A stretch of 47,364 nucleotides of DNA. Source: Mesotaenium endlicherianum. Lineage: Eukaryota. The position numbers and the translations under genes are program-made. Below the pieces are notes generated by a model. The model had not been told where the DNA came from, did not search any database, and saw only the letters and a program-made list of their open reading frames with translations. The DNA lies in NCBI GenBank assembly GCA_009602735.1, contig WELA01003606.1, forward strand, positions 391,653 through 439,016. Direction: 5' to 3'. Shown here piece by piece: positions 13,206 to 47,001 of this stretch (positions are counted from its first letter, which is position 1; each line of letters starts with the position of its first letter).

Positions 13206-13238
13206 GTGGTATCGACACAATTATCACAGTAGTCGTGT

Positions 13239-18963: not shown

Positions 18964-19070
18964 GTAAAAGGGAACAAACCTACCCTCCTAATACAAATAT
19001 ATTTCTCTTCCTGCATCTCCTGCGACAAAGATTGAGATCCTACTAACTTGTGCCCTGGTTGCATGTGCAG
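18964..19070 (+). other. Putative intron upstream of extra ORF (copy 3)
   Basis: AAG|GTAAAA, TACTAAC (19041-19047), GCAG|G then ATG at 19072. Confidence 0.65.
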
Positions 19071-19071
19071 G

Positions 19072-20274
19072 ATGGCTCCCACCACACAAAAGGAAGATAG
19101 AAAGCGCAAGGCAGAAGAAGCCAGGAGGACGATGGTGCAATACCAGAAAGAGCTGGCGGCGACGTCCTTCACCAAGAGAGAACAAGAAAGGGTCCGCAAA
19201 CAACAAGAGGTGGCAGACGAAGCACAGAGGAAGAAGGAGCAGGAGGCAAAAAATCTCAGGAAAGCTGAGAAGGAGAGAGAGAAGAAACAACAAGAAGAAG
19301 TGGCGGTAACAGAGGAGGAGAGAAGGAAGAAGGCTGAAGCTGAGAAGCAGAAGAGCCTGGCCACTTACAGATGTACTGTGGTGGGTGGCCAAACCTTTGA
19401 TACCCTGAAGGAAGCATTACTGGCAACCCAGGAGATCAACAAGATGGAACAGAAAACAATGCTACAGAGACAAGGAGCTGAAGCTCTGGATAAGTACATT
19501 GAGACACACACTGGTGTGGTCCTCAACGAAGATTATTCCAAAACGGTGGTGTATACAGCAGAGCAGGCACGGTTTCTTGCAGATGACTCGGAAGATAAGC
19601 CAGTATTAGTGCCTGGCATAGTGGGGAATCAAAGACTCATCAGGATGGTCAGCATGCAGCCCAATAGCTTTAAGGATGCAGTATTTTACCTGACACTATT
19701 GCCAGCCTACAATGAAGTTGAGAGGAGGTGCTGGGAGTACTTGGCAAGGGAAATAGGGCAGCGGATGTTCTCCCCCCACTGGTTTCCTTGTAAGCTGAAA
19801 AAAGTTGAGCATGGGCCACAGTACTACCAGCAGCCCACAGACTGGAGGTGGATGACCGTCACTAACAGAAAGCAGGAGTGTGATCGGGCCCACCCAGATG
19901 ACTTTCGCTATGGGCTAGACGGCTACCTCATCCTACCACCTCACATTGCCCCTTGGGACCCCAGGCTTAATGGATGCTTGAGTAATATGAATGCTGAAGC
20001 TAAGGAGCACAAGAGGAGGGGAAGAGACTCTTTCTCTAAGGGGAAGCATGCCTTTGTCAAATGGGCAAAGAATGCAAGCCGGATAGATATCAGCAAGCTG
20101 AAGGCCAAGCAACCCCCAGCTCGTCCTAAAAAAGTGCGGTCAGTATATTTTTCCATGTCCACCAGGGAGCAGGATGACTTAGTGGACGAGACCCCTACCC
20201 TCTCAGAGGAGGAAGATAAGGAGGATGAGGAAGAAGACCAGGACAGAGGAGAAGCATCAGGAGCTGGTTCTTAG
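19072..20274 (+). CDS. Family C extra ORF: charged coiled coil + unknown Trp/Cys/His-containing domain + acidic tail
   Basis: 400 open codons, conserved with 7911-9173. Terminal TAG corresponds to CAG in copy 2, so the ancestral frame probably extended further (same frame as ORF 20524-20748). Confidence 0.75.
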   Translation: MAPTTQKEDRKRKAEEARRTMVQYQKELAATSFTKREQERVRKQQEVADEAQRKKEQEAKNLRKAEKEREKKQQEEVAVTEEERRKKAEAEKQKSLATYRCTVVGGQTFDTLKEALLATQEINKMEQKTMLQRQGAEALDKYIETHTGVVLNEDYSKTVVYTAEQARFLADDSEDKPVLVPGIVGNQRLIRMVSMQPNSFKDAVFYLTLLPAYNEVERRCWEYLAREIGQRMFSPHWFPCKLKKVEHGPQYYQQPTDWRWMTVTNRKQECDRAHPDDFRYGLDGYLILPPHIAPWDPRLNGCLSNMNAEAKEHKRRGRDSFSKGKHAFVKWAKNASRIDISKLKAKQPPARPKKVRSVYFSMSTREQDDLVDETPTLSEEEDKEDEEEDQDRGEASGAGS

Positions 20275-22230: not shown

Positions 22231-22321
22231 TCAACTCTTTATCAGTTCAACTCTTCGCAGAAGGAAACATGCTTGGGAAAAAAAAACTTGAAAGGGAAAA
22301 ACAAATGCAAAAGTTAGTATC

Positions 22322-24846
22322 TGAAATGAATCTTGCTTATTCAAGATTAATATATTTCATTTAAATATATAAGATCAGAGATAGGTGGAAGCGTGTGAAA
22401 TTAGGGAGCGATCTTCGCCCTTATAATGAATTCCGTTTACTCATCTACACCCCTTGACTCATTTACCGTAGTGTGCCATAGTTGCACACTAACACGAGGC
22501 ACAAGTAAGAGGCGAGCTTGAGTACTTGAGCTTCTCCTTTAGAAACTCATGGCCTCTTGCCTACCAGGCATGCAAGCATGTATAGCACATGCACAACATC
22601 AGGGGACTAAATAGCAAAGGCGCTCTCATTTAGATGACCATAATGTAGCTAAGACACATCCCACTGACTTAGGTACAAAAACATGGAATTTGTCCGCTGT
22701 GTGACCCCGAAATGTCAGAGGGCATAACTCTGCCAATACTACTCCAAATTGAGCAATGTAATGAATCAATTCATTATGTATTTAATTAATTGCATATATA
22801 AATATAACACTAAATAAGTATTATGTCAGTATACTCACATGTGCGAGTTCATCTAAATGAATGAACGTCGATGTAATGCGAGTTTTTTTACTTTGTCAAA
22901 AATGTCAGCAGGATGACTTTTGTATCACAGTGTAGTTTGTTGACTTGTTGGGAAGGTCAGCAGGATGACTTTTGTGTCATAGTATAGTTTGCTGAGATTT
23001 GTATATCAGTTATATATAGGATGTAATATCAATAGGTTGACATATAGTAAGCTCTCCTCATATTAGTCAGTATACTTAGCTTCAGTACGCTAAGGATAGA
23101 TACATTCATTTAGATTATTATTTGTAGATTGGCACATGTGACCGTAGTATACTGAAAGTCGGAAGGTCGACTGAGATTCGGTAAACCGATGTCCTACCAG
23201 TGTGGTTAACTCCTGGGTGGGCGGAGCCGTCGTCAGTCAACTGAACAATTAGGACTTCAGTCAACCGACCAATTAATATGGTCGTTATACCTAGATCCGG
23301 GGGTCCCAACTTAACGGGTTTCCCACGAAACGGCGCACCTTGCGCCGTGGTCAACCAGGTGGTCACTAGGTTCATAGCAGGCTGGGATCTCGTGGTCCCT
23401 CATTCTGGACAGTAGGCTTTACAGTCGAATTTCTACTTGCAAGTCATGTGTGCACTTTTGGGTTTGTTCTAATGACCAGCCTTCACGGAAAATGACATGC
23501 TTGCTTCGTCTGCGCTCCAAATGAAACGAACTAGATGTTTTCCGAAAGGTCTCGTCAAGATGCATCCGTTGCCGTTAAGTTTGCTCAATTTAGAGTAGTA
23601 TTGGCAGAGTTATTTCCTCTGACATTTCGGGGTCACATAGTGGACAGATTCCATGGTTTTGCACCTAAGTCAGTGGGATGTGTTTTAGCTACATTATGGT
23701 CATTCGAATGAGAGCGCCTTTGCTATTCAGTCCCCTGATGTTGTGCATGTGCTATTCATGCTTGCATGCCTGGTAGGCAAGAGGCCATGAGTTTCTAAAG
23801 GAGAAGCTCTACTCCTCAAGCTCGCCTCTTTCTTGTGCCTTGTATTCGCGTGCAACTATGGCACACTACGATGAGTGAATCAAAGATTATAGATGAGTAA
23901 ACGGAATTCATTATAAGGGCAAAGATCGCTCCCTGATTTCACACGCTTCCACCTATCTCTGTTTTTTTATATTTTAATGAAATATATTAATCTTGAATAA
24001 GGAAGTTTCATTTCAAGCAAACTCAACGGCAACGGATGTATCTTGACGAGATCTTTCCGAAAAGTCCTAGTTCGTCCCATTTAGAGCGCAGAACAAAGCA
24101 GCCATGTCAATTTTCGTGAAGGCTGGTCATTGAAACGAACCCAAAAGTGCACACATGACTTGCAAGTAGAAATCCGACTGTAAAGCCTACTGTCTAGAAT
24201 GAGGGACCACGAGATCCTAGCCTGCTATGTACCCAGTGACCACCTGGTTGACCACGGCGCAAGGTGCGCCGTTTCGTGAGAAACCCGTTAAGTTGGGACC
24301 CACGGATCTAGGTATAACGACCATATTAATTGGTCGGTTGACTGAAGTCCTAATTGTTCAGTTGACTGACGACGGCTCCGCCTCCCCAGGAGTTAACCAC
24401 ATTGGTAGGACATCGGTTTACCGAATCTCAGTCGACCTTCCGACTTTCAGTATACTACGGTCACATGTGCCAATCTACAAATATTAATCTAAATGAATGT
24501 ATCTATCCTCAGCGTACTGAAGCTAAGAATACTGACTAATATGAGGAGAGCTCACTATATGTCAACCTACTGATATAACATCCTATATATAACTGATATA
24601 CAAATCTCAGCAAACTATACTATGACACAAAAGTCATTCTGCTGACCTTCTCAACAAGTCGAGCAAACTACACTATGATACAAAAGTCATCCTGCTGACC
24701 TTTTTGACAAAGTAAGTAAACTCGCATTACATCGACATACATTCATTTAGATGAACTCGCACATGTGAGTGTATTGACACAATACAAATTTAGTGTTATA
24801 TTTATATTTGCAATTAATTAAATAAATAATAAATTGATTCATTACA
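22322..24846 (-). repeat. 3' LTR of family N (split by an inverted solo LTR of the same family)
   Basis: 22322-22756 plus 24021-24846 matches 41214-42474. Confidence 0.93.
22757..24015 (+). mobile_element. Family N solo LTR, opposite orientation
   Basis: TGTAATGAAT...TTCATTTCA; TSD AGCAA (22752-22756, 24016-24020). Confidence 0.93.
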
Positions 24847-24882: not shown

Positions 24883-24898
24883 CTCAGCATATGATACT

Positions 24899-25899
24899 TG
24901 TCATGATTTATTGAGTCGAGGTTGTCGTATAAAATCCAAGCTCCACATGTGCAGAACATCAACCTAGGAAGGCCGACTTTGCATTGACTTTACGCATCCG
25001 TATGTTGACCTTTTCTAGATTTCCAAGTCACCGACGTGTAGCGCGTCGAAGCATCTTCCGAATGGCACCAATTTTGCGTCATTTGGTCGAGTATCGAGCG
25101 AGATAGGTGCGATCTAGTCCGCGTCACCTACGGGTCCCTAGCGAAACTTTCCTAAGGCCCAATTTGTGACTCAATGTCCCCGAAGGTGACATTGTTGGCT
25201 CTTCGTGACCCCAAGCTTTGTGCGCACAAATCCGCGAGCCCCTTAGCCTACATAAGCTTTGCATTTCCATAGTATATGTGCATCATTAAGGCTATAACTT
25301 GGTGACTGCATCACCTACTCCTAGAGGAAGCTTCCTCAATTTCCAGATCCACTTTTGAGGCGCTATCTAGGTAGAATCACCCAAGGTAAGCTCGGCCAAT
25401 GAGGGACACGTAGCATATGCTACGCACCTTGCTTTGATTGGTTTGAGTTATGCTTAGCCTATAGGAGTGCTAGTACATGCCTTGTACACATTAGTGGACA
25501 CAGGAGAGCCTCCTAGAGTGACTACATGCACTGGATCCGCCGCATACCCCACCGGATTTCCAGGAGTATAAGTATTAGAGATGTCCCTAGAAGAGACATC
25601 TTTTAGAAGTCCATTATGCCAGGTGTAAGCAACAGAGTTTATCAGTAAAGCTTACACTTTTATCTCTTGTGTTTTCAGGACCACTTAGTTACTCTCTTGT
25701 GAAGAGCAAGCCCTCCAGGCTTCCAATCACTTGAAGAATTTCACAAGTGGTGAGCAAAGTCATAGCTTAAGCCCTTGCCATAGGACTACTCTGAAGATCA
25801 TGATGTGCTTCCAGTGATCTTTTGGGCCATACTTCATTAGTTGTTTTCCTAACAGATTACAATCTTTAGGTGCTCACTCTGGAGAGTACACATTCCTTA
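24899..25899 (+). repeat. Repeat A1 (1001 bp)
   Basis: Direct repeat of 36542-37500; TATAAGTA at 25567. Confidence 0.95.
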
Positions 25900-25911
25900 C
25901 TTCTAAAAGAT
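25899..25911 (+). promoter_or_regulatory. Putative self-priming primer-binding site
   Basis: ACTTCTAAAAGAT is the exact reverse complement of ATCTTTTAGAAGT at 25598-25610, 31 nt after the TATA start; no TGG-type tRNA PBS here. Confidence 0.75.
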
Positions 25912-25947
25912 CTCTCTTTTCCTGCAAGCAATTAGAACCTTCAGCGT

Positions 25948-27138
25948 ATGCCTACCCGTAGTGGGCTTTCTTATCAGCCATACTACGAAGGGGTTAGTGG
26001 AGAAGACTCAGACTCAGATCTCAGCACTATCACTGAACCCGCTGAAGAAGAGCAACCTGCTCTCCAGCACACAGCAATTGCTTCTGAGCCATCTCCCCAG
26101 TGGGCTCACTACGATTTCTGGTATCCCATGGCAAGTGATCACGAGGTCAAGACTGACAGGTCTGCCTACCGCTCCAGCGGTAGGCCAGGCATCTGTGATC
26201 TAGAAGATACCATCTCGGAGTTTCAGGCTGACTTTGCGGCTGCAAAGCTCAAGACACCCACGCTAACTAAGCGCGACGGCTTCGACACGCTTATGCGCTA
26301 CCTCTCGCACGAGGCCCGCGACACCTTCCGTGAGAAGGAGGCCGAGCTCCGGACCCGCACTGAGCTTGTAGGTGACCCACCAGTGGCGACCCTGCTAGCT
26401 GATCCAGTGCCAGCCTTCTGGAACATCCTGAAGACAGATTTCCAGGCTGCAACTGAAGAGAAGGTGTACGAGCTGCACCATTTCTTCCGACGCAAGAACA
26501 AGACTATCCGCATGATGTACCGCCGCTTGGTGCACCTCCGCCGCGATGTCGGCACTGTCACTGACCGGGAGGCCGCGGAGATCTTCTTGCGCGCCGTCGA
26601 GCCGCGTCTGAGGGAGAGGGCCGTAGTCCCCCTCATCGACCGCCACGGTTCAGAGTATTCTCTGGAGCAGGCCTACCTCTCCGTTGAGAAGCAGAGCTTG
26701 GCCGCCGCACGGAGCAACATTAGCGATCGTGTGGGTTTAGCATCCACGGGCGTGCGCCAGGAGGCCTCAATGCTGCCGTCTTCTACGACGCGCTCGACGC
26801 CTACCCGCCAGCCCCTGTCGCAGCAGCAGCAGCCTCAGCGCTCTCAGTTGCCCCAGCAGACGCAGCAGCGCGGAGCTATGCGAGGCCGCATTTCCATGGC
26901 TGCCACTACGAGCGATCCCTGCTGGTCCTGCGGGAAGACGGGCCACTCACGCCAGAACTGCACTCTCGCGCAAAATGGCAAGCCCAGCGACTGCATTCTG
27001 GCAAGGCCAGCCACCTGCAGATCATTTGTCTGCAGGAAAAGCGCGACGTCAAGAACGGACGCGCTCGCGACAGCCCTACGCCTTCAACAGGACAGCGAGG
27101 CGCACGCAACCCTCGTACGGGTGGCCGCCCCGCGATGA
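25948..27138 (+). CDS. Gag-like protein with CCHC zinc knuckle
   Basis: 396-aa ORF; CWSCGKTGHSRQNC; a probable second knuckle is broken by a frameshift near 26995. Confidence 0.85.
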   Translation: MPTRSGLSYQPYYEGVSGEDSDSDLSTITEPAEEEQPALQHTAIASEPSPQWAHYDFWYPMASDHEVKTDRSAYRSSGRPGICDLEDTISEFQADFAAAKLKTPTLTKRDGFDTLMRYLSHEARDTFREKEAELRTRTELVGDPPVATLLADPVPAFWNILKTDFQAATEEKVYELHHFFRRKNKTIRMMYRRLVHLRRDVGTVTDREAAEIFLRAVEPRLRERAVVPLIDRHGSEYSLEQAYLSVEKQSLAAARSNISDRVGLASTGVRQEASMLPSSTTRSTPTRQPLSQQQQPQRSQLPQQTQQRGAMRGRISMAATTSDPCWSCGKTGHSRQNCTLAQNGKPSDCILARPATCRSFVCRKSATSRTDALATALRLQQDSEAHATLVRVAAPR

Positions 27139-29850
27139 TAGCAGCTACGGCCACGACGGACGCCGCATTGATGCCTGGAGCCGAATACTGCAGCTTCGAC
27201 GACGTCAGCGATGCCCTCGTGGAGGCCAACGCGGAGATTGCTAGACTCCGTGGCCTCGTCGACGTCCATAACTATGACGCGTGCGAAGCACTCCTCGCGT
27301 CCGCTCCACTATCCTACGCCACGGCACTGACAGCTGGCGCATGCACAGCTTCAGCGCACACATCAGGCTCAACGGCAGCGCCGCAGCCCCGCGCACGTCC
27401 GCATTACGACGTAGGGCCCGCTGCTAGAGCTGCAGGCGCCCGCACAGGCAGCTCTGCTAGCCCTGTGCGCAACGCTCTGACAGTTGTCAGCAGCAACAGC
27501 CGGAGTCCCGACAGACTGCCGGATGGCAGGCTGCACGACTGCGCGGTTGCGCCATCTTCCGACGCAAGCTCGCGCGCACGCGGGCCAGCCCGCAAGTCAG
27601 CGGAGGCCCCGACAGAGCCCCTGGCTTGCGCTTCCCTGCTGGCACCAGCAGGCCTCCCGTCAGCTCGCGTAGCGACAGCTGGCAGGCAGGGACGGGGGCA
27701 CCTGGCGGCGTGCACGGCTACAGCTGGTCCGGTCGCAGCCTCCCTCTCCGTCCGTGCGGCACGCCCGTGCGCAGCTCTGCGCACAGGCAGGGATAGCCGG
27801 TCCCCGCTGGCTGCTGCAGACAGCAGGCTCCAGCAGAATCCGCCATGTGGCACGTGCACGGCAGGCGAGGCCGCCTGTGCCGACAACAGCATGCACGCAC
27901 GCACGCTGGCTCACACGCGCGCCCAGCGCACTGCGCTGCCAGGTCCACGTTGCACCCGGCGACGCCACGACGTCGTCACAGCGGCAGCTGCAGCTGCGCA
28001 TAGCAGCTGCACCCACGCGCTGCCAAGTGGCGCGTGCGCGCAGGTCTGCACGGCCAGCGCAGCGACGGCCGCAGCGGCCGCCACCCTCGGTCAGCAAGGG
28101 GGGGTCCTGACTGCGCTGTGCGGCCGGATCGCCGGCAAAAGCGCCGACAGCGCACCCGCAGCTGCGCACATCCAGGGCTCAGCCCCTGCCGCACACGTGC
28201 TGCCACTTGGCACGCGCGCATGGCCCGGCTCAGCCCGTACAGATCCAGCGGTCGGAGCAGCCACCCGCAGTCAGGGGGGGGCTATACCCACTGCGCCACG
28301 CGGCCGGATGTTCGATCGCGGTGCCGACGGCCCGCGCACGGTTGCGCACAGCCAGGGCCTAAACCCTGGCTGCGCACAAAACCCCGGCAGCAGCCCAACG
28401 CAGGCTGCCGGGGGGCCGGTTAGCCCACGCATCGGGGGGAGGGCGCTGCGATCTTTGCCCGGGGCAGCCGAGATAGACGGCGCCACCGGTCCAGTGACCC
28501 TGCCCCTCGGCCCCAGCAGCCACCAGGGGGCGCCACCTGGCAGCCTCCTGGCAGCCCCGACCGCGCCAGCAGCTGCAGCAACTGCTGCAGCCGCGGCCGC
28601 ACACGCGCCGGGGTCCGCAACTTTTGCGGCCGAACCCGCGACCGGCTGCACGGCAGGCCTTGCGGCAGGCTGCGCAAGGAGTCCTGCGGCAGACAGTGCG
28701 GCAGTTTGCGCGGCAGGCTGCGCAGCAGGCCTCGCGGCGCGCCCTGCGGCAGACAGTGCGGCAATCTGCGCGGCAGGCTGCGCGGCAGGCGCGACGGCAG
28801 TTCCCGCCACCGGCTGCGCGGCAGGCGCGGCGGCAGATCTCGCAACGGGCCCCGCGGCAGGCCTCGCGGCAAGCTGCGCGCACGGCGCTGCAACAGGCCC
28901 CGCGGCAGGATGCGCGGCAGGTTTGCCGGCTGCGCCAGCAGCGGCCATTCTGGCCTGCTGCGCACGCGCGCAGCCACTCGTCAACCCCTCTGCAGTTGGG
29001 CGCGCGAGCCGCGAGCACATGCTCGCAGCACCGGCCAGTCGGCCCGTTGTTCCGCAGAAGCGCGCCGGGCCAGACCAGGGACGCCGGACAGAGGAGGCAC
29101 CGCGGCTGCCCCGTTCCTTCCGCATCCTAGAGCCCTCCACGACCTCAGCAGAGCCGACGCCACATGCGCTCGCTTCGCCTATGACGACGGTGCAGCTCAG
29201 CGCCGAGGTCATCTCTCTAGCACTGCACCGCATGCCGGCGGTCTCCTTCGCAGAGCTCGGCGTCTCCATGGAGGCAACGAGGCAGGTTGCTCAGCTGATG
29301 CTCCAGTCGCGCAGAGCCACGCTGCGCACCGCCGCCAGGTGCCCGACGGCCGATGCCGCCACCGCGGTGCGATCCGCGCCCGCGCGCCCTGCGCATGAGC
29401 GCAGGATGATCAGCACTCCTAACGCCGCGTTTTTGGATAATTCGCAGGGGATCGTGCTCGTCAACACCCAGGCGCCGCAGCGCATCATGTTCGACACAGG
29501 CGCGCAGCCGCTTCTCATCAGCCTCCGCTACTTCCGTCAGCTGGGACTCTCTTCCGCCGACTTGGAGGACTCTCCGACGCGCATTAACACCGCCGTCGGC
29601 GCGTCCAAGACCGTCGCCGGCCGCACGAGGTTAGCGCTACTGTCTGCGCCCAGGCACGGCAGACGAGACAACCATCCATCGCCACGCACTCGTCACTCCT
29701 TCCAAGTCCTTTGATGTGCTCCTAGGGCAGGACGTGCTCTTTTCCATTGGCGCTGCGGTCAAAAACTGGGCGGAGCGCGTCTTCTATCGTCCCAACTGGA
29801 GGACAGGGGGGACGCGCACCGCATCCTTGCCCCTTGACATTGTCGATCGC
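27135..29850 (+). pseudogene. Ala/Pro-rich spacer followed by retropepsin-like aspartic protease
   Basis: IMFDTGAQPLLIS (~29485-29520), then DVLLGQDVL after a frameshift (~29713). Confidence 0.8.
28640..28930 (+). repeat. GC-rich coding minisatellite (12-nt GCGGCAGGC-type period, 60-nt higher-order duplication)
   Basis: CCTGCGGCAGACAGTGCGGCA occurs at 28683 and 28743; encodes AAGC/AAGL/AADS repeats. Confidence 0.8.
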
Positions 29851-31772
29851 CGCCCAGCAGTGTCCGCTCTTTATGGCTTCATGGGGCTGGGCGATGGCCG
29901 GCAAGTGGTCAAGACCGATAAGGACGGGCCCGAGGACGAGGAGATCTCTGTGGGGGTGGACCTGCTCGAGCCACAAGACGAGGAGCCGGACCTACCTAGT
30001 GCCGAGTTCCACCTCACGCCTCAGCAGCAGGCGGATGTCCTGGCAGCCCAGGCCAGGGAGCAGATCCGCATCTGCATTGCCCACAGCGCGATGATGCGGC
30101 AGATGGCGGACGATGCCACTGAGGCCCTCGCCACGGCCAGCACAGCCATCGCTGCCGCCGCCCTTGCTCGCGGTGCGGCCGCAGCGCCTACGGCTCATCA
30201 GGGGGTCTCGGCCTCTCGCGGCGAGCCGTCCGCGAGGATCGACGTCCGCGTTTGCCACGACGTGCCTGTTGGCGTGGCCATTCAGTACGGTATGGACTCT
30301 CAGCCGCCCTCTCACAACGCCTCGCATCAGACCGGCGAGACCTGGCCTTGCACCACGGCATCCGAGGACGAGGTCATGCGGCAGGCAGCTTCTCCTGGCA
30401 GATCCAACGAGCAGTCCCTCAAGAGTGAGGAGGAGACGCAGTGGGAGCGACTGCCAGAGGCATCCGTCGAGATACTCAGCGCGGAGCCCCCGCCAGCTGC
30501 GCCTACGGCACGCAGGCAGCGCGCACCTACTGGTTTGCCCGGCTTCAGCGCACCCAGCTAGCCCATGACACACGACTGGTCCAGCAGGGCTCGCACCGAC
30601 GCCGCTGGACCCAGCCGTCCGACTGGCTCAAGTGCTCGACGAGCCACGAGTGTCGCCGCATTGCGCATTTGTTTGCGACGAGCCGGGATGCCGCGGCCTC
30701 CTCTAGCGCTGGCACACACTCCATACAGTAGCCAGTGCCCAGGCTCAGCGTCCGCGAGCCACCCCGCACGACCCCGTCTATCTGCGCCCATCTGACCTAC
30801 ACACATTGCACTAAGCCAACCATCGGGCCCGCTCGAGAGACCACTCCTCTCCGCGAGACGAGCCGCTCCCGATCGCTCACACCCCTTTGCGAGACGCGAG
30901 AGGTGACTCCCCTCCGCGAGACGCGAGCCTGCTCCATCACGCGGCCCTACGACAACAGGGAGCGCACGCCTCCTTACGATGACACGCGGGCCCGCGGGGA
31001 CACGCCGCCATACAACGATACTCGAGATCGATGCCGCACTCCGCCCTTTCGGCCCCTCTCAGCTGGCGACGACGCTCAGTCTTCTTCCGAGGCGCATTTT
31101 GTGATGCTGGCCCCTACAGCTCCGCACGCCAGCGTCCCTTGCAACCACATCGCTGGCGACTGTCCCTTCAGGTCACCTCCTCCCAAGGTGGCCCGCACCG
31201 ACAGCAGGCCGCCCAGTCGCCACCCATCTACAGCCGCCGCACGCACACGGCTCATGCCTAGTCTCCGGCAGCCCCGAGACGCGCCCGTCCCACAAGGGCA
31301 GCCCCGGCCGCGAGTCCAGCTGGCCCCTCGCCAGTTAGTTTGGTCCCCGCAGGAGGTCGACAGCTCCGAGCGCTCCGTCTGCACAGTCCCCTCTGCAGAC
31401 ATGCGCGCACGCCAGCGGGCCTACTTCGACCCGCACCCCTACTTGACTCAGCGTCCCGTTCTCGACCAGCTGGCCCACGCGGCCTCGCACCAAACTGACC
31501 GCGCCCAGCGCGACAGGTGGCAGCAGCTGTGCGTGGCCTCGGCCCGACGTCAGGCCCGCGTTGTCTCTCCGACAGCCCTGCAGGATGCGCGCCTGCGGTG
31601 GCGCACCTACCAGGACCACGCACGGGAGGAGCGTCCGCAGCCGCTCACTGACCGCATCCCCAGCCTTATGCGTGACTACGCAGACCGTGCTGTGGCCGCC
31701 CTCCGCGTGGCGCCACATCAGCACAACGGCAAGCGTACCTTCCCGCCGCCCGCTTAGCCCGGCACCCCCGCA

Positions 31773-33054
31773 ATGGGGTGTCGCCCACTTCCGACTCCTA
31801 TCTGCGCAGACGCTCTAGACGAGCGGCCCGGCGGCATCGTCCTCATCGAGCTCTTTGCCGGCATTGCCACCGAGTTGCTCGCGACCTTACAGGCCGGCAT
31901 CTCGGTGCGCCGCTATGTCTACGTCGATCCCGATCCTGAGGCCCAGCAGGTGGCCCGTCGGCAGATGGCGTTGTGCCACGAGCGGTTCCCAGACCTCCTT
32001 CCCGCGCACGCATTCCGCCGCGCTCGGACAAACTGGCCCATGGACATCCGCGACATCACCGTCGAGCATGTCACCCGACTTGGGCCCATTGACCTCGTCA
32101 TCGCCGATTGGGAGTGCCAGGGCTTCTCCAGAGCCGGGCGTGGCAGGGCGCTCAACGATCCCCGCACGGCCCTCTTTTGGCACTNACGATCCCCGCACGG
32201 CCCTCTTTTGGCACTTACTCCGCGTCCTCAACATTGTTGAGGATCGCCAGCCGCCTCACACACTCGCGTGGGTCCTGGAGAACGTGGCCGCGCGCCACGA
32301 TCACCGACCCGATGTTAGCGCCGACTTCGCTCTTTGCAGCAGCTTCGTCGGCCGCGAGGCCGTCACCGACGCTGCCCAGATTGGTTCCTTCGCGCACCGC
32401 GTCCGCGCCTACTTCACGAACCTGGCGATGCCAGGTACTCTCGAGGCGTTGGCCGCCTCTCATCAGCCTCACGCGCGAACCGTCGACTCCATCCTCGATG
32501 CCCCTTGTCTGGCCCAGCGCGTGACTGCACTACCACATCCCTCCATGGTGCGGTGTGAGGTCCTGCATGACGTCACTCGCGCGCTGCCGACTTTTGTCAG
32601 CCGCTACGACAGCGACGCCTTCGTCGGAGATCAGCGCGAGATGGTCATCGACCTGGAGACTGGCATGTTTGACAGGCTGCGTCCTGCGGAGATGGAGCGT
32701 GTCATGGGCTTCCCGCCACATCTCACACAGGTGGACGGTCTCACTGAGGTGAACCGCATTCGCCTCTTGGGGCAAGCAATTGACGCCAACGTCCTCACAT
32801 GGATTCTGCTGCAGACGCAGGCCTTGGCGCCTCTCTACGCCGCAGCTCGGCATCCCGAGCTGCCTCGGCCTGCCGATGATATGGACGATGACTCCACCGA
32901 CGATGACAATCCGGCCCCGCCCGGCACAACGTGGCATCCTCAGCGCGCAAGGCCTGCACTGCAGGCGCGCGCCCGCCCCCCCTCCCCACCGCCGCGCAGG
33001 GAGGACTCTGGTTTGCTGGTGGGGGGACGGCGGAGAGAGGAGTCCTCACAGTGA
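31773..33054 (+). CDS. DNA (cytosine-5)-methyltransferase domain within the polyprotein
   Basis: Motif I IELFAGI, III DIRDI, IV DLVIADWECQGFS (Cys 32115-32117), VI VLENV, VIII HRVRAYF, IX EMERVMGFP, X RLLGQAI. The two ORFs join in frame once the 30-nt duplicate + N at ~32185 is removed. Confidence 0.93.
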
Positions 33055-33150
33055 CCCAGGGAGTCCCGGTCACCCAAGGAGTCCCAGTCACCCTTTCTTT
33101 TTCCTTGCTCGCAGGCAGACGGTGCCAGGCAGCTGGCCGCAGCTGCCACG

Positions 33151-34700
33151 GTGCAAGTACCCGCGGCAGGCCGAGCGCCAATCGGTGCAGGGCAGGTGAC
33201 ACCTACAGCACCACAGTCTACCCCAGCGGCAAGACAGGTGGCTCCAGCTGCAGGCCAGGCGACGCCACCAGCTCCACTGACATGGAAGCTGGGGGGGACA
33301 CTCACCAAGGCGCAGGCTGCACAGTTGACGGCACTGCTGGACGAGAGGCGCAGCACCAACTTTGCCAGCCGCATGCACGATCTTGGGCGCTACAGGGGGG
33401 ACTCCATGCGGATTACTCTCACGTCGCAGGAGCCCGTTTTCCTGAAGCGTTATTGCTACAGCCACTTTGAGGATGGCTTGATCAGCGCGCAGACAGGCAA
33501 GCTGGAGGACAGCCGGCTCATTCGGGAGTCCTCCTCTCGCTATGCCGCACCCACGGTCATGCCGACCAAGAAGGATGCCTCGGGCAACTGGTCCGAGAAG
33601 AGGATGTGCGATGACTATTGTAGGCTGAACGAGGTCACCGAGCAGGACAGATATCCTATGCCGACGCCTGACGAGATCTTTGACGACATTGGCACGTGCA
33701 CTTGGTTCTCAGTGCTGGATCTGCGTCAGGGCTTCAACCAGATTCCCATCGCCGAGGAGGACCAGCATAAGACGGCGTTCTGGGGAGCACAGCGGCTCTA
33801 CGAGTGGGTGGTGATGCCGTTTGGGTTGAAGAACGCGCCAGCTACCTTTCAGAAGGTGATGGATAAGGAGCTAGCCGGGCTGTCCTTTGCCCGATGCTAC
33901 ATTGATGACGTGCTCGTCTTCAGTCAGACGTTTGAGGAGCACGTGGCGCACATCACTGCTGTCCTGGACCGCTTGGAGGGCGCTGGGCTCAAGTGCCATC
34001 CAGGCAAGTGCACTTTTGGGACCCGCGAGGTGGAGTACCTTGGCCACCTGCTCTCCTCCAGCGGATTGGCACCCCAGCTGGCGAAGATCTTGGCCATCAC
34101 AGGCATCCCACCTCCTACAGATCTCTCGCAGCTGCGGGCCTTCCTCGGCATCGCCAACTACTACCGCCGCTTCGTGCCAGGGTTCAGCGAGCTAGCCAAG
34201 TTGCTCAACGACTTGCTCCGCAAGGGCGTTGCCTACGTTTGGGGACCAGAGCAGCAGGCGGCATTCGATAAGCTCAAGGAGCTGTTGGTGAGCGATCCTG
34301 TGCTTCGGCGTCCTGACTACGCGAAGCCCTTCATCCTCCACACCGACTGGTCGCAGGCAGGGCTCGGCGCTGTGCTGGTGCAGGAGCATGACGGCTTCGA
34401 GCATGTGGTGGCCTACGCCAGCCGCAGCAACAACCGCGCGGAAGGCAATTACGGCTCCTACGAGGGGGAGTGCCTGGCAGCGGTCTAGGCGATCGTGCAC
34501 TTCAGGCACTATCTCTACGGCACGCACTTCCGCCTGGTCACCGACCATCAGCCACTTAAGTGGCTCATGACGTCGGAGCGCTTGACCGGCAAGTACGCAC
34601 GGTGGGCGCTTATCTTGCAGGAGTACACCTTCGACGTGCACCACCGTCCAGGCTCGACCAACCTGGACGCTGACGGTCTCAGCCGTAACCCGCTGCCCTC
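33151..34700 (+). pseudogene. Ty3/Gypsy reverse transcriptase + RNase H
   Basis: DLRQGFNQ, MPFGLKNAPATFQ, YIDD, LRAFLG; RNase H HTDWS...ECLA...TDHQPL...ADGLSR; one TAG (likely from TGG) at 34486. Confidence 0.95.
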
Positions 34701-34940
34701 CTCGAGGGATCTCACTGTGGCCCGCCACGATGAGGATGAGCCAGTGGCCTGGCACGCGGCGGCCTTCCTGGCCTTCACCGTGGACGGCGATGTGCGGCCC
34801 GCAGGGCTCACTGGCCTGGACATGGTGACCGTCACCACTTGGCGATTGGCCCTGGCAGCGGCAGAGGATCAGGACAGCTGGCAGCGCGGTCCCGAGGACG
34901 TGTGGGACGACGCCCCAGTGCTGCAGTACGTCACGGCCAN

Positions 34941-36203
34941 ATCACGGCCAAGGAGTTGGCACCTGATGTCAGCGCACGCGAGCGGGACCGCATCCTCAGG
35001 CGCAGCCGCGACTTCATTTTCATGGAGGGGCGTGTGCGGCGCGTGATGGCGAACGGCTCCGTCCTGGTGGTCCCTGAGCCTGCCATACGCAGTCAGCTGG
35101 TGCGCCGAGTGCACGAGTCCCTCGGGCACTTCGGTGTCAAGCGCACCCTCAGTCTTCTTCAGGCCGAGTACTGGTGGCACGGCATGACTAAGGTCGTCGC
35201 CGCTGTTGTCAGCAGCTGCACTCTCTGCGACCGTGTGCGCTCGAGCTTCACAGCGCGCACCGTTGCCCTCAGCCCCCTTCCTATTCAGGGGCTGTTCTAC
35301 AGGTGGTCGCTTGACTTGGCTGGAGAGCTGCCCAAGTCTCGCCAGGGCAACCTCTACGTCTTGGTGATGATTGAGCACATGTCCAAGTGGATCGAGCTCG
35401 TGCCCTTGCCCAACAAGGTCAGTGAGGGGATCGCTCAGGCCTTCCTCCATCAGGTCCTTAGCCGTTTTGGCGGCTGCGCTGAGGTGCTGACCGACCAGGG
35501 CAAGGAGTTCCAGGGCAGCTTTCAGAAGCTGCTGGAGCGCTCTATGATCGACCACCGCACCACCTCCCGCGATCATCCTCAGGCTGACGGCCTCGCCGAG
35601 CGCATGGTGCAGACCGTCAAGCTAGGGTTGCGGAAGTACTGCCTTGCCCACGACCGTACCCACTGGGACGACGCCCTCCCTTGGCTGGCGATGGGGTACA
35701 GGTTCAGTAAGCAGGCCTCCCTGGCCTCGCACTCTCCCTACTTCCTTCTCTACAGCCGACAGCCCATCCTGCCAGCAGCAGCCAGGACTGTGGCCGAGAA
35801 CGTCTTGGACTTGGACAGTCCCGAGACATGGAGTGCTCTTATCGGGCAGCGTGATCAGCTCTTTCGGCGCCTGATGCCCATGGCCATGGATAACCTCAGT
35901 ATCGCACAGCATCGGAACACACTGAGGTACGCCATGACTCGTGGAGGAGCCTATCATCCGCGGGTGTTGCAGTTTTCCGCAGGTGACTTCGTGTACCTGC
36001 GACGCCAAACGAAGAACACCCTCGACACCAGCAGCTCGCCGGTCATCCTGCGCGTCAAGCGTGCCTTGGCGTCAGGAGTCCTGAAGCTGGAAGGCGCAGA
36101 TGACCGTCTTCACAAGGACCACACGAAGAACTGTGGGCCGTGCCACCTTCCTAACCTTGACTTGCAGGTCCGTCCCCGCGACGCGCGGCCGCCCAAGGAC
36201 TAG
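34941..36203 (+). CDS. DDE integrase (HHCC + rve core)
   Basis: HESLGHFG...CTLC; SLDL, TDQG, LAERMV; no tyrosine-recombinase motifs seen. Confidence 0.93.
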   Translation: MTAKELAPDVSARERDRILRRSRDFIFMEGRVRRVMANGSVLVVPEPAIRSQLVRRVHESLGHFGVKRTLSLLQAEYWWHGMTKVVAAVVSSCTLCDRVRSSFTARTVALSPLPIQGLFYRWSLDLAGELPKSRQGNLYVLVMIEHMSKWIELVPLPNKVSEGIAQAFLHQVLSRFGGCAEVLTDQGKEFQGSFQKLLERSMIDHRTTSRDHPQADGLAERMVQTVKLGLRKYCLAHDRTHWDDALPWLAMGYRFSKQASLASHSPYFLLYSRQPILPAAARTVAENVLDLDSPETWSALIGQRDQLFRRLMPMAMDNLSIAQHRNTLRYAMTRGGAYHPRVLQFSAGDFVYLRRQTKNTLDTSSSPVILRVKRALASGVLKLEGADDRLHKDHTKNCGPCHLPNLDLQVRPRDARPPKD

Positions 36204-36389
36204 GCGTGCCAGATCTGTCACAGCACTGGCCAGGAGGCCAAGATGCTGCTCTGCGACAGCTTCAACCTCGGCTTCCACATCGGCTGCCTCGACCCGCAGC
36301 TGGCCCGCGTGCCAGTTGGAGATTGGTTCTGCGGAGACTGCACTGAGCTAGCCTTAGGCAGCGTACACAGCCTATCAGCTAGATGCTGA
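36204..36389 (+). pseudogene. PHD finger, in frame after integrase (separated by one TAG)
   Basis: ACQICHSTGQEAKMLLCDSFNLGFHIGCLDPQLARVPVGDWFCGDC fits C4HC3 with the fourth Cys changed to Phe; not in the ORF track. Confidence 0.9.
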
Positions 36390-36394
36390 GAGCT

Positions 36395-36403
36395 GGGGGG
36401 GGA
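36395..36403 (+). promoter_or_regulatory. Putative polypurine tract (G8A) preceding B1
   Basis: Lies just after the pol stop and immediately before the repeated segment. Confidence 0.65.
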
Positions 36404-36539
36404 ATTAAAACATTTTCGACTTGACTCCCTTTTTGGCTATAACGCCACATGTATTATAGACTCCATTGCAGCACAGCCTGCTTGCCTATGATGTGTTGCT
36501 TATGCCTATGGTGCACACTCGACCTCGTAACGCACGACA
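36404..36539 (+). repeat. Repeat B1 (136 bp)
   Basis: Direct repeat of 37501-37636; ends CACGACA. Confidence 0.95.
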
Positions 36540-36541
36540 AC

Positions 36542-37500
36542 TGTCATGATTTATTGAGTCGAGGTTGTCGTATAAAAACCAAGCTCCACATGTGCAGAAC
36601 ATCAACCTAGGAAGGCCGACTTTGCATTGACTTTACGCATCCGTATGGTGACCTTTTCTAGATTTCCAAGTCACCAACGTGTAGCGCGTCAAAGCATCTT
36701 CCGAATGGCACCAATTTCGCGTCATTTGGTCAAGTATCGAGCGAGATAGGTGCGATCTAGTCCGCGTCACCTACGGGTCCCTAGCGAAACTTTCCTAAGG
36801 CCCAATTTGTGACTCAATGTCCCCGAAGGTGACATTGTTGGCTCTTCGTGACCCCAAGCTTTGTGCGCACAAATCCGCGAGCCCCTTAGCCTACATAAGC
36901 TTTGCATTTCCATTGTATATGTGCATCATTGAGGCTATAACTTGGTGACTGCATCACCTACTCCTAGAGGAAGCTTCCTCAATTTCCACATCCACTTTTG
37001 AGGCGCTATCTAGGTAGAATTACCCAAGGTAAGCTCGGCCAATGAGGGACACGTAGCATATGCTACGCACCTTGCTTTGATTGGTTTGAGTTATGCTTAG
37101 CCTATAGGAGTGCTAGTACATGCCTTGTACACATTAGTGGACACAGGAGAGCCTCCTAGAGTGACTACATGCACTGGATCCGCCGCATACCCCACCGGAT
37201 TTCCAGGAGTATAAGTACTAGAGATGTCCCTAGAAGAGATTATCAGTAAAGCTTACACTTTTATCTCTTGTGTTTTCAGGACCACTGAGTTACTCTCTTG
37301 TGAAGAGCAAGCCCTCCAGGCTTCCAGTCACTTGAAGAATTTCACAAGTGGTGAGAAAAGTCATAGCTTAAGCCCTTGCCATAGGACTACTCTGAAGATC
37401 ATGATGTGCTTCCAGTGATCTTTTGGGCCATACTTCATTAGTTGTTTTCCTACCAGATTACAGTTTTGAGGTGCTCACTCTGGAGAGTACACATTCCTTA
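36542..37500 (+). repeat. Repeat A2 (959 bp)
   Basis: Copy of A1 with a 42-bp deletion near 37238. Confidence 0.95.
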
Positions 37501-37636
37501 ATTAAAACATTTTCGACTTGACTCCCTTTTTGGCTATAACGCCACATGTATTATAGACTCCATTGCAGCAAAGCCTGCTTGCCTATGATGTATTGCTTAT
37601 GCCTATGGTGCGCACTCGACCTCGTAACGCATGACA
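37501..37636 (+). repeat. Repeat B2 (136 bp), element 3' end
   Basis: Ends CATGACA, followed by TSD TACT. Confidence 0.95.
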
Positions 37637-38470
37637 TACTTTTATTTAAGAATACACTTCAATCAACTAGGTGAAGCAAAGCAAGCAAAGAAGACACGAG
37701 CGTAATATATTCACCTACCCAGTGCAAGTGAAAATAAATCACAACAAACTGTCATGCAAGCAATCATCTGACTTCACAATCAACAATTGAAGACATGCAT
37801 GGACATACCTATACTCACAATAGTCCTTCCAGTTGAAAGACACAATAGAGCAGCTCATTACATGCACACCACACCCAAATCAAACAGCCTCCTTTCGAGG
37901 TCAAACAATGAAAGAATGTCATTAAGGCTCAGCCTACTGAACAAAGCCTTTTCTCCTTCTCTTGGTCTTCAACTCCTGCCGTGCTCACATCTTGAAAGCT
38001 CCTCACAAGCAATTTCTTGTGACTTAGGTACCTGATCAAAATTCAGCGAACTGAAGGAAGAGGGTGACCAACTGATTTGATGGCATTAAATGCCCTTACA
38101 AGATGAGTAGCATCAGGTTAATGAGCCCAAGAAAATTTTAAATTAACCACATTTTCTGAACACACTAAGTTCAAAGAAACATATGGTTTTGAGCAATATG
38201 CTGGTCACCTCAAGCAGGTCCCTGATGTGCCATGCACTATTGCTACCAATCCCAACTTATGGTAGTGTACTTACTCAGTTAGTACGTACACTCGCTCAGG
38301 CAGTGTACTGCAACTCACAGTCCACACCAGTCAGTCACTGATGCTCCTGATATTAATGCAGTACATACATAGGATGTGGCAGTGTATGACTCAGTTAGTA
38401 CATACACTTGCTGTTGAGTATGCAGGTAAGCACAGCTTACTGAATACTCCTAATACACATCCCATCTTCC

Positions 38471-41212: not shown

Positions 41213-41213
41213 C

Positions 41214-42474
41214 TGAAATGAATCTTGCTTATTCAAGATTAATATATTTCATTTTAATATATAAGATCAGAGATAGGTGCAAGCGTGTGAAATCAGGGAG
41301 CGATCTTCGCCCTTATAATGAATTCCGTTTACTCATCTACACCCCTTGACTCATTTACCGTAGTGTGCCATAGTTACACACTAACACGAGGCACAAGTAA
41401 GAGGCGAGCTTGAGTACTTGAGCTTCTCCTTTAGAAACTCATGGCCTCTTGCCTACCAGGCATGCAAGCATGTATAGCACATGCACAACATCAGGGGACT
41501 AAATAGCAAAGGCGCTCTCATTTAGATGACCATAATGTAGCTAAGACACATCCCACTGACTTAGGTACAAAACCATGGAATCTGTCCGCTGTGTGACCCC
41601 GAAATGTCAGAGGGCATAACTCTGCCAATACTACTCCGAATTGAGCAAACTCAACGGCAACAGATGCATCTTGACAAGATCTTTTCGAAAAGGCCTAGTT
41701 CGTCCCATTTCAAGCGCAGAACAAAGCAGCCATGTCAATTTCCGTGAAGGCTGGTCATAAGAACGAACCCAAAAGTGCACACATGACTTGCAAGTAGAAA
41801 TTCGACTGTAAAGCCTACTGTCCAGAATGAGGGACCACGAGATCCTAGCCTGCTATGTACCCAGTGACCACCTGGTTGACCACGGCGCAAGGTGCGCCGG
41901 TTCGTGGGAAACCCGTTAAGTTGGGACCCACGGATCTAGGTATAACGACCATATTAATTGGTCGGTTGACTGAAGTCCTTATTGTTCAGGTGACTGACGA
42001 TGGCTCCGCCTACCCAAGAGTTAACCACATTGGTAGGACATCGGTTTACCAAATCTCAGTCGACCTTCCGACTTTCAGTATACTACGGTCACATGTGCCA
42101 ATCTACAAATAATAATCTAAATGAATGTATCTATCCTCAGCGTACTGAAGCTAAGTATACTGACTAATATGAGGAGAGCTTACTATATGTCAACCTACTG
42201 ATATTACATCCTATATATAACTGATATACAAATCTCAGCAAACTATACTATGACACAAAAGTCATTCTGCTGACCTTCTCAACAAGTCGAGCAAACTACA
42301 CTGTGATACAAAAGTCATCCTGCTGACATTTTTGACAAAGTAAGTAAACTCGCATTACATCGACATACATTCATTTAGATGAACTCGCACATGTGAGTGT
42401 ATTGACATAATACTTGTTTAGTGTTATATTTATATATGCAATTAATTAAATAAATAATGAACAGATTCATTACA
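41214..42474 (-). repeat. 5' LTR of family N (1261 bp)
   Basis: TG...CA ends; flanked by PBS and TSD. Confidence 0.94.
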
Positions 42475-44294: not shown

Positions 44295-45232
44295 GGGTAA
44301 ATTGCGAAACTACCACTCTCAAGTTTTTTATTGCAAATCTACCAGTTACTTCCAAACTAATTGCAAAACTACCACTCGCACATGTAAATGGCGTCCACGT
44401 AGGACCTACACGAATAAATGACGTGCCACATGATTTCGCATGGTACCCTATCTGACACACCATTTCTCTCCTTCGTTTCCAAAATCTTCCACCACCACAT
44501 TTGTAACTGACCCACCTCCACGAAACAAACTGCCCAAGGACGCCACAGGTATTTCTTCAAACCTATTTCTTGCGCCTTATTTTTAAAACCCTGTATGTTC
44601 ACAAACTATATCCATCGCATTCCCTGCTATTTCACATACCAAACGGAGTCACAACAAGCTAATTGTGGCGACTCACTGGTAAGCAAAGGGGTTAGTTATT
44701 AGTGGCACATTTCCATTGATGTTGCTTGTGGCTATTCCTTCGTCTTTCTACGCATACCCCACCGTTTTTAACTGTGCAACCATGGGATCTGAAGGATTTT
44801 AGTTACAATCGTACTTGGGTGGAGAAGGAATGTAGAGTTAGTATAAGCAAGTTCACCCCCCAAGCTACATCCGCCAAGATTTTAACCACCATAAGAAGTA
44901 GCTTGTTTTAGCAATGAGTTAGGCCTTGGGTGTGCGTCCTCTATTGCCAAAATTTTGCGTCCTTGGGCAGTTTGTTTCGTGGAGGTGGGTCAGTTACAAA
45001 TGTGATGGTGGAAGATTTTGGAAACGAAGGAGAGAAATGGTGAGGCAGGTATGGTCCCGTGCGAAATCTTGTGGCACGTCGTTTATCCGTGTAAGGCCTA
45101 CGTGGACGCCATTTACATGTGCGAGTCTGGTGCAAGTGGTAGTTTTGCAATTAGTATGGAAGTGAGTGGTAGATTTGCAATAAACAAACTTGAAGGTGGT
45201 AGTTCTTCAATTTACCCTTTTGCAATTTACCC
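44295..45232. mobile_element. Mutator-type non-autonomous element (MULE-MITE)
   Basis: ~250-bp imperfect TIRs (44295-~44543 / ~44955-45232) starting GGGTAAATTG; 9-bp TSD CAATTCTTT / CAATTTTTT (8/9). Confidence 0.82.
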
Positions 45233-47001
45233 CAATTTTTTAGCCAAAATGAGCTAAAACACTCAAGGGTCCAGTTTCCACATTTCATGAAACTACGCCA
45301 TAGCACACGCCGGAGTGCAGTAGAGGACTACATGCTATGTAAACAACGTGAGTTCGATATTCCGATCGAACCCGTCTTTCACGCTCGATCACCTGTGAGA
45401 GCGACCTTTGAAACCTCCAAACTTGCATTTCGTTTGCACATGCAGAGCCCAAGTTATAGACAGCAAGAAGAGCAAGATAGTAATTGCAGTAGGCATGGGC
45501 TTCTATGTGGCAGACGACGGGCGAAAAGTGAAAGGCAGGGAAAGTGCGTAAGTACTTCCGAAATTATGGTAGTGGAGTAATGCACGCGAATGGGCATAAG
45601 CGCCGCGCTTAGCTTCGGTTGAGGGATCCGCCCTCGGGGTATTCCGGGCTTGCAGCAACACTGTTACCATTTTACCACCAATTTTCGTAGAAGAGAGGAT
45701 ACGATCACCGGTGCTGGAACTGCAGTGTCGTCGAGAGGCTTTACGTATGGATATACGACTGCACCTTGTTTTATGTATGTTCGCCTGCACTTAGCCTGGT
45801 GCATGTCCGCAGGGATACAGGCCTCGAGCCTCTTCTCTACTACTCATCGGTCGCTTCACTTGTCAACCGGGATTGTCTTTAAAAATCGATCAGGGCAGCA
45901 GGAATATCTTGTCTCTGAGAGGACCATACTTCTTCAGTAGGAAAGAAAGATATGTTCGCGTGAAGCAATTGAGTTTGTGGCGATCTGCATGTGCGCGGCA
46001 TCACCAAATTCGTTGACTTCCTCTATTTGTGGTGCTTTTCATTTCACGATAATCTAGAGTGAGAGACTATGGCTCAGTCTAAGTAGCTAAGCTTCATGCT
46101 ATCCTTGTACTGTCAATTCTTCCTCCATTCTTGAAAAATCTCCTTTGCGATTGACAGCAATAGTGATGGTATTCGAGCTTTTTTTTTATAAGATCTGTGT
46201 TCTTTCTTTGCTTGGCATGGACAAATGGCATGGGATGCGTAAATCCATCTGTGGACTCCCCCTATCCCCCATCTTCATTTCATAACTTCATAACAGACCT
46301 CTCCAGGGCGCTGTACACCTACTTAGGGGCTGCTACTTGGAATGCACAAGAGGTGCCATTTTTGAAGCTCCAGTGTTTCCCTCTCTCCCATGCCTGCCAG
46401 GGTGGGGTGCAGGAGCATTTGGTGTCATCTCTTCTTGATCAAGTGCTAGGAGCTTGTCACGCTCTCATCCTTTGTGACACGGCGTCTGGAGCCGCCACGC
46501 TGAGTTGAGACATAGTTAACATAGTTGGTTACGAAAGACTATTAGAAAACCTACGAATAGAGACATGATTGGATCTGAGGGCATGATTGGAATTGAGGTA
46601 TAACTGGGGCAGTGGTCAAGCTTCAGTCTCTCTCGCAGCAGCAGCGCCAGCTGCTGGCTGCTAGCTGATAAATTACCGCCCGCTCTCAAAGGGTTGATTA
46701 GAGCTTAGAGCCTGGAGCTTCTTCCAGCTGGCGAGTGCGCGGCTGGAGATTGGAGAAGTGAACACCTGGACCCCGTGCAGTGCTCTTCTTTAGCTTCATG
46801 CAGAGACCCTGGGAGAAGCGTCCAGGCCTCACAGGTCCAGTGGCACCAGGACTGGGAAAGTAACGCCAAACAGATGCCCCTTGGCGAGAGGACACGCTCA
46901 GCGTGTGTGGCATATGTCTCTGCTTCGCCTCGCTGCCTTGGAGAGGCCGGTGAGAGGCCAGCCAGCTAGCCAGCGAGGTGTCGCATTCTGAAAGGGCCGC
47001 C

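Follow-up and report, generated by a model that had tools for sequence, protein, structure and literature searches.

The window analysed here, a 47,364-nucleotide stretch of the Mesotaenium endlicherianum assembly GCA_009602735.1 (contig WELA01003606.1, forward-strand positions 391,653 to 439,016), harbours a Ty3/Gypsy retrotransposon with split terminal repeats. Self-BLAST and a reading of the junctions in the window give its order, between two copies of the tetranucleotide TACT, as A1, gag, protease (PR), a Dnmt3-like methyltransferase, reverse transcriptase (RT), RNase H (RH), DDE integrase (IN), PHD finger, a run of eight guanines (G8), B1, the dinucleotide ac, A2 and B2. The element is Ty3/Gypsy by its proteins and a structural variant by its ends: instead of two full direct long terminal repeats (LTRs), one on each side of the integrated element, A stands at the left and B-xx-A-B at the right, where xx is a spacer of two bases. 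This split layout is a trait of a family and a clade, and it places the integrase attachment (att) site inside the repeat.

Structure of the element

The features of the main copy are as follows.

24895-24898, +: left target-site duplication (TSD) TACT, identical to 37637-37640
24899-25898/25899, +: A1, left repeat, beginning TGTCATG (self-BLAST, junction reading)
25567-25572, +: TATA-like box TATAAG, about 25-30 bases ahead of the self-primer segment (read from the sequence; putative role)
25592-25610, +: self-primer segment at the putative transcript start, forming 18 of 19 pairs with 25899-25917
25899-25917, +: primer-binding site (PBS) of the self-priming type, directly 3' of A1 (junction reading, complementarity)
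25951-27138, +: gag-like open reading frame (ORF) with zinc knuckle (zf-CCHC, E 0.004)
29457-29630, +: aspartyl protease domain that closes a long Ala-rich frame, 26724-29714 (PF13975, E 6e-5)
31758-32919, +: Dnmt3-like C5 cytosine methyltransferase (PF00145, E 1e-5)
33055-34626, +: reverse transcriptase and RNase H of Ty3/Gypsy type, interrupted by an in-frame stop codon (34486-34488)
34941-36203, +: DDE integrase bearing an H2C2 finger (rve, E 1e-13; H2C2, E 4e-17)
36207-36345, +: PHD finger in the integrase frame, behind a stop codon (PF00628, E 2e-10)
36395-36402, +: G8 polypurine tract immediately 5' of B1; a G tract also precedes B1 in related loci
36403-36539, +: B1, 137 bp, ending CACGACA; putative start of U3 of the LTR (junction reading)
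36533-36548, +: internal att junction CACGACA-ac-TGTCATG, with the 2-bp spacer AC at 36540-36541
36542-37499, +: A2, second copy of A, beginning TGTCATG, without the 42 bp that hold the self-primer segment
37500-37636, +: B2, ending CATGACA; at the A2/B2 joint the end of A1 is joined exactly to the start of B1
37637-37640, +: right TSD TACT (junction reading)

A1 would comprise the 3' part of U3 together with R and U5 of a B-xx-A LTR. It differs from A2 by 18 mismatches over 959 aligned bases, plus the 42-bp gap in A2, and B1 differs from B2 at 4 of 137 positions; given the similar divergence within each pair, the two pairs are about equally old. The 42-bp deletion, at 37234/37235, takes out the self-primer segment, and since other copies keep this segment the loss looks like a one-off. 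The window yielded no second version of the insertion point in its empty state, and the element contains no tRNA genes and no Rfam match. The first-pass annotation of this DNA had described a TSD-bounded A1-gag/pol-G8-B1-ac-A2-B2 order with TGTCATG/CATGACA ends, which self-BLAST and junction reading bear out, with B1 put at 136 bp instead of the 137 bp measured here. Its account of the content holds for the layout and had missed the methyltransferase, the PHD finger, the self-primer and, in the part of it available, a second copy at 1-2656.

The coding region follows the Ty3/Gypsy Pol order PR-RT-RH-IN and has a Ty3-type RT, the top solved-structure match of which is the Ty3 RT (E 2e-63); it is disrupted by stops and frame changes. 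The integrase had been called a DDE enzyme beforehand, correctly so according to the rve and H2C2 matches and the catalytic residues D125, D185 and E220, spaced D-(34)-E. No tyrosine-recombinase family gave a Pfam match among 27 element reading frames (10 + 17 scanned), and domain scans of the element gave no match to a chromodomain. The methyltransferase is in two pieces, both with DNMT3A/B/C as top solved-structure matches, and is interrupted near 32155-32187 by a short duplication that contains an N and does not occur in contigs from three public runs.

Relation to known retroelements

The element shares with canonical Ty3/Gypsy retrotransposons the gag-PR-RT-RH-IN order, the DDE integrase, the TG...CA ends, the 4-bp TSD and the polypurine tract (PMC6317226), but it has no paired full LTRs, its priming sites and integrase ends do not coincide, and its catalytic spacing is D-(34)-E. 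The arrangement of its repeats is that of the DIRS/PAT/Ngaro elements: A-ORF-B-A-B split direct repeats are described for PAT and Ngaro (PMC7192593), in keeping with the first-pass annotation, which had given this layout as typical of PAT/Ngaro-type elements with a tyrosine recombinase. Whereas a tyrosine recombinase is found there, the window element has a DDE integrase and 4-bp TSDs and gives no tyrosine-recombinase match.

The first-pass annotation knew of no such description for a Gypsy element, yet the layout is already present in the Fig. 4c legend of a paper dealing with Klebsormidium nitens, by de Mendoza et al. 2018 (PMC5890265). The KnitGypsy-Dnmt3 element described there has a Gypsy Pol with a Dnmt3-related domain, and according to the legend it combines Gypsy domains with the repeat structure of a DIRS element; the same paper gives the DIRS structure, for SymbioDIRS, as A-coding-B-A-B. 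Set against the legend text, the likeness to the window element thus extends to both the Dnmt3-related domain in Pol and the DIRS-like repeats. The available text of that paper, however, is silent on termini, att junction, TSD, mode of priming and a model of integration, and it treats KnitGypsy-Dnmt3 as a K. nitens acquisition, whereas here the lineage also turns up in Closterium, a liverwort, Scenedesmus and metagenomes. The window RT groups with a Klebsormidium RT (P0011), a protein of RT-RH only that may come from a KnitGypsy-Dnmt3 copy; the name 'KnitGypsy' is absent from three supplementary text files of the paper, and the supplementary figures may hold more. The element is probably of the KnitGypsy-Dnmt3 lineage, which would then be much wider than reported. 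In the literature covered, a body that leaves most subscription papers and Repbase outside, the layout appears on a Gypsy element only in PMC5890265 and the integration model developed below in no paper. A PHD-bearing Gypsy element of Chlamydomonas is described with LTR subparts and a left LTR that is 8 bp short (PMC9940879); REM1 is mentioned in PMC2774666.

The split layout in other copies and related loci

An order of this kind might arise from a one-off rearrangement, a tandem insertion or a misassembly of an ordinary A-B...A-B element, and there are four N in the window and the contigs that match it are short. This explanation has to be set against the further copies of the family, one of which lies in the window itself.

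1-2656, -: second copy, independent of the main one and 88-96% identical to it, present with its left part only

The second copy starts with TGTCATG at 2656, and its A runs straight into the PBS and gag, so that it has the same left end and A/PBS join as the main copy. It carries a nested insertion at about 877-1800 and is itself inserted in another Gypsy element, with an uninterrupted homologue of the host site at 14610/14611. An ordinary Ty3/Gypsy family, the RT of which groups with a Vitis match, is represented by two broken, nested copies at 2657-7212 and 14220-18922, and the second copy of the split-repeat element lies within one of them. Many more copies are present in public runs, judging from short contigs and RNA reads compared with the window. 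In run X1, 18 contigs pass from the end of A into PBS sequence; variant copies of the region 36520-37700 read from B through att into A; one contig leads from the A/B joint through the end of B into a different flank, and a different flank also stands before the start of A in 7 and 15 RNA reads. Neither B-to-PBS nor tract-to-A joints occur among 15 joints examined, 88 further joints lying outside that set.

The layout extends well beyond the window family. An RT profile made from the window RT and 36 matches was used to fetch 80 metagenome loci (RT identity 36-52%) in a scan that covered 9 of 64 parts and drew on short-contig assemblies. After the integrase, B is followed by A in 32 of the 80 rows, or in 28 once four duplicate insertions are dropped; 25 of these independent loci run on into B2, two stop at the contig edge and one meets other sequence. 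B is followed by flank, giving A-ORF-B, in 12 rows (10 independent; TSDs in L021 and L040), and the 36 rows without B after the integrase reflect an early end, an interruption or another lineage. The A-ORF-B copies were not used as evidence of 1-LTR circles, for B1-B2 recombination or assembly collapse gives the same product. The 25 loci make up two repeat families, unrelated in sequence to the window family except at the ends. A loose pattern search of the loci for ordinary junctions returned 18 tract-to-A and 2 B-to-PBS matches, none of them at a 3' block by position (L064 alone was inspected), and a long repeat pair in L070 was dropped as belonging to another element.

The split layout is therefore a family and clade trait and not a one-off. 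The sharing of the split layout by independent copies, which the first-pass annotation had put forward as a check, is seen in 25 independent related loci, and the one-off insertion or misassembly it had named as a refutation does not apply at the family level, where 25 of 28 B-A loci continue into B2. With this 3' block common to distant loci, with ordinary joints missing from the 15 examined and with further copies in other surroundings, a one-off origin is already refuted for the family, and as an account of the locus it is scarcely credible.

A tree of 39 RT rows has a branch with support 100/99 that divides 25 rows, namely the window, the split-layout loci, Klebsormidium, Closterium, Calypogeia and Scenedesmus, from 14 other Ty3 rows; the rows were hand-chosen from search matches, and the reference clades Tcn1, Chlamyvir, Phygy and Selgy are not among them. 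A quick tree of 101 rows agrees with it. Neighbours of this kind would point to a streptophyte alga or a bryophyte as the host. The second methyltransferase piece matches 51 of the 80 loci and the PHD finger 42; for this piece a word-based search of longer proteins found no match, and a full HMMER search found 388. The usual D-E spacing is 35. In the present lineage it is 34 in all 47 related proteins with a readable motif and in 28 of 29 loci, one residue less than in foamy virus integrase.

Several loci are of interest in their own right. The DNMT domain follows RT in 50 proteins and precedes it in 9 (e.g. P0160 of Scenedesmus, within P0121-P0281), so that two domain orders exist within one lineage that extends into chlorophytes. 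L071, L072 and L077 fall outside the lineage, and in L071 and L077 the integrase lies upstream of RT. L059 contains a solo A-B unit (12886-13343, -) that sits within a full element and has TG/CA ends and a duplicated ACCA; it could have arisen by A1-A2 recombination or by cutting of both att sites. The A-ORF-B copy of L009 (4144-13221) lies inside another LTR and has an apparent 7-8 bp duplication instead of 4 bp.

An att site inside the repeat

The ends of the element are those of a Ty3/Gypsy integrase substrate, with TG...CA termini and short TSDs. Among 15 complete elements, the window included, the 4-bp TSD is exact in 8, has one mismatch in 4 and two mismatches in 2, and is lacking in 1. 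Termini of the same type meet between B1 and A2, where independent junctions conform, with scattered changes, to the consensus CAYGACA-xx-TGTCATG. The spacer is 2 bp long in 28 of 29 independent junctions (window included; L043 is unreadable) and comprises AC (9), GC (6), GT (6), AT (4), AA (1), TA (1) and TC (1), of which AC, GT and AT could all be derived from GC by transitions. An internal att site within the repeat is thus well supported.

In IS3/IS30/IS21-type insertion sequences a DDE enzyme acts on a circle and opens the junction at which two ends abut across a short spacer; these are DNA transposons without reverse transcription, and their spacer is derived from flanking DNA. The spacer of the window element differs from its flank (AC versus TACT) and appears inherited, and a flank-derived att spacer was rejected, as the spacers do not follow the TSDs. 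Foamy virus integrase cuts the circle junction in vitro after CA on both strands and leaves a 2-base 5' overhang (PMC1180852), which is the geometry seen here, and under drug reversal HIV-1 2-LTR circles can feed integration, linear DNA remaining the main substrate (PMC4372172); the reference list of PMC1180852 includes a title that reports the failure of foamy integrase to integrate such circles. There, however, the CA-spacer-TG junction is formed by the end-to-end joint, whereas here att is encoded within the repeat and the joint lies elsewhere.

Priming signals define the repeat as B-xx-A

A PBS and a polypurine tract of the Ty3/Gypsy kind are both present, but they bound B-xx-A and not the TG...CA unit. 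The G tract sits ahead of B1 and not ahead of A2. At the other end, the sequence that follows A1 is the complement of a segment within A some 25-30 bases past the TATA-like box, and a TATAAA-like box is found at the corresponding place in most related loci. The paired sequences, which match at 18 of 19 positions in the window, are different in each of the three families; in 11 of 16 elements the complementarity exceeds that of all 40 control 22-mers. The predicted fold of 25590-25930 is closed by this pairing (z -3.3, equalled by 1 of 100 shuffles). Tf1/Sushi and Tcn1 are described as self-priming in this manner, without a tRNA as primer (PMC6317226); the present element differs from these in giving no chromodomain match, and a PHD finger ends its integrase.

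Transcription is consistent with this assignment. The reads of poly(A) RNA run X24 imply sense RNA, and their depth, about 16-21 at first, reaches 53-86 at the point of A2 to which the self-primer segment belongs; 17 reads end within that segment. Run X23, with 77 reads, has too little depth for the step to be visible. Most of the reads are 90-99% alike and so come from other copies. Thirteen RNA ends pile up at 37474, perhaps at a poly(A) site or perhaps as copies of a single molecule, and were not used. The primer site for the minus strand is thus found where A ends and that for the plus strand where B begins, which makes B-xx-A the repeat that is reverse-transcribed and puts the TG/CA ends within it. 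The proposal of the first-pass annotation that the priming sites set the LTR as B-xx-A, with the integrase att inside, is accordingly supported by the polypurine tract, the self-primer and the RNA depth step.

Origin of B2 and of the A/B joint

B1 and B2 of one copy resemble each other more than chance would allow. Across 22 loci of one family they share 134 minority bases within copies, against 82 +/- 10 (maximum 120) in 500 permutations, and no alignment column separates B1 from B2. The identities of A and B correlate across 12 loci (rho 0.67, p 0.017). The homogenisation signal is modest, given that the own partner is the best match in only 5 of 22 loci. These patterns support the view that B2 is remade from B1.

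The A/B joint is exact in the window; among the 25 loci its length is exact in 16 and altered in 9, by +1, +1, -1, -1, -2, -2, -3, +18 (filler) and +132. The att spacer is without such change (Fisher p 0.0006 for joint against spacer), and each altered joint is found at a single insertion. In L074 the extra 132 bases consist of the polypurine tract plus the stretch upstream, a product to be expected of plus-strand mis-priming prior to end joining; mis-priming scars of this sort occur at retroviral circle junctions. The A/B joint thus behaves as an end-joined junction would that forms afresh.

The joint could instead be copied. As in PAT/Ngaro-like elements, a read-through RNA would carry A2/B2 as template or splint for the joint, and the right end would be rebuilt from the parental B2. 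The layout, identical to that of split-direct-repeat elements with tyrosine recombinase (PMC7192593, PMC5890265), is in line with such a process, as are the sense RNA reads that span the A/B joint (7 and 10) and the exactness of most joints. A templated joint fits poorly with alterations that each occur at one insertion only, with the polypurine-tract sequence held in the L074 joint and with canonical plus- and minus-strand priming signals that bound B-xx-A, and the A/B reads are explicable by a promoter in A2 or by solo A-B copies. We consider templating improbable.

A model of integration

We propose that the element is likely of LTR type, with B-xx-A as its true repeat, and that its integrase likely cuts the internal CA-xx-TG after the ends of the cDNA have joined, where the integrases of related elements trim the ends of linear DNA, an account that has a fair margin of doubt and that we nonetheless think probable. 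Transcription would start inside A1, and the 5' bases of the RNA would pair with the sequence after A1 and prime the minus strand, with the G tract ahead of B1 priming the plus strand, steps that sequence and RNA support. Reverse transcription would yield [B-xx-A]-ORFs-[B-xx-A], and joining of the U5 end to the U3 end, to which the junction scars point, would create the A/B joint of a 2-LTR circle. Integrase would then nick after CA on each strand of the att site 114-176 bp from the joint. The staggered CA-xx-TG cut would produce two ends with 2-base overhangs, inserted with a 4-bp stagger, and the other att would stay as B1-xx-A2, the template for the next round. With B short and A long, the att site used is the one nearest the joint; that this proximity is the cause of single-att use is a guess.

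Several observations weigh against this model. On a symmetric 2-LTR circle the two att sites are equivalent, and a cut at the other one should give A-B-xx-A-ORF-B; this mirror layout, with B before A at the left end, was seen at none of 29 independent left ends (32 inspected, minus L055 and two duplicates), and a bias is therefore required. The circle-integration model of the first-pass annotation thus gains from the internal att, from the derivation of B2 from B1 and from the fresh A/B joint, and loses by the missing mirror product. The RNA reads across the A/B joint fit templating as well, the joint changes were classified by hand, and some of those of 1-3 bases may be later slippage, the joint being AT-rich. 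The broken coding region means that the window copy is not itself the active parent, and the loci compared come from the partial metagenome scan with its short contigs. A circular intermediate is likely but unproven; we infer it from junction scars only, and the cutting by integrase is likewise putative.

An alternative pathway has no free circle: integrase would cut the internal att of the 5' LTR while the cDNA is still linear, both halves would be inserted, and host end joining would close A/B. It predicts the identical sequence, the identical A/B scars and the identical B1/B2 homogenisation; the shortness of B in all three families (114-176 bp, against about 290-1000 bp for A) fits it, and the 5' LTR, which would be finished first in reverse transcription, could supply the observed one-sided bias. 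Against this stand the chromosome break that it demands at every insertion, between the U5 end and the short piece of B, and the exact length retained by about two thirds of the joints (16/25). Cutting of linear cDNA is, to our mind, unlikely, though clearly less so than templating, and opening of an end-joined circle remains the preferred account.

Other features of the window

A repeated ORF of up to 412 amino acids with a coiled, charged stretch lies downstream of the ordinary Gypsy integrases, at 7842-9173 and 19036-20274; it has no Pfam match and is perhaps an extra ORF of the ordinary Gypsy family. A broken transposase with DDE_Tnp_1_7 matches occupies 9283-11171 (-). Non-coding elements, among them one nested within another, are found at 22321-24846 and 41213-42474, with long inverted arms of 435-830 bp (91-95%) and internal repeats of 53 bp, and a further inverted-repeat element with arms of about 250 bp at 44295-45217. 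At 46954-47364 the GC-rich start of an ORF without Pfam match runs off the end of the window.

Significance for the Ty3/Gypsy lineage

2-LTR circles have long been regarded as dead ends. Retroviral work grants them only a back-up role (PMC4372172). In the elements considered here every full copy keeps the end-to-end joint, and the integrase ends lie at a separate, templated site; this provides exact substrates for a direct test of whether DDE integration normally proceeds from a circle. If the integrase does act on a circle by opening a short site within it, the enzyme would also be of interest as a tool. LTR pipelines require paired LTRs with TG/CA ends (PMC6317226) and would miss or mis-size split-repeat elements; this may explain the lack of a clade name for the lineage in the literature covered. 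In the broadest reading, which we hold to be evenly poised between right and wrong, an old green-lineage Ty3/Gypsy clade of charophytes, bryophytes and some chlorophytes would have moved its att site inside the LTR and made the end-joined 2-LTR circle an obligatory precursor, with a layout convergent with that of tyrosine-recombinase retroelements, a chemistry convergent with that of IS3-like DDE transposases and a lineage-wide change of one residue in the D-E spacing.

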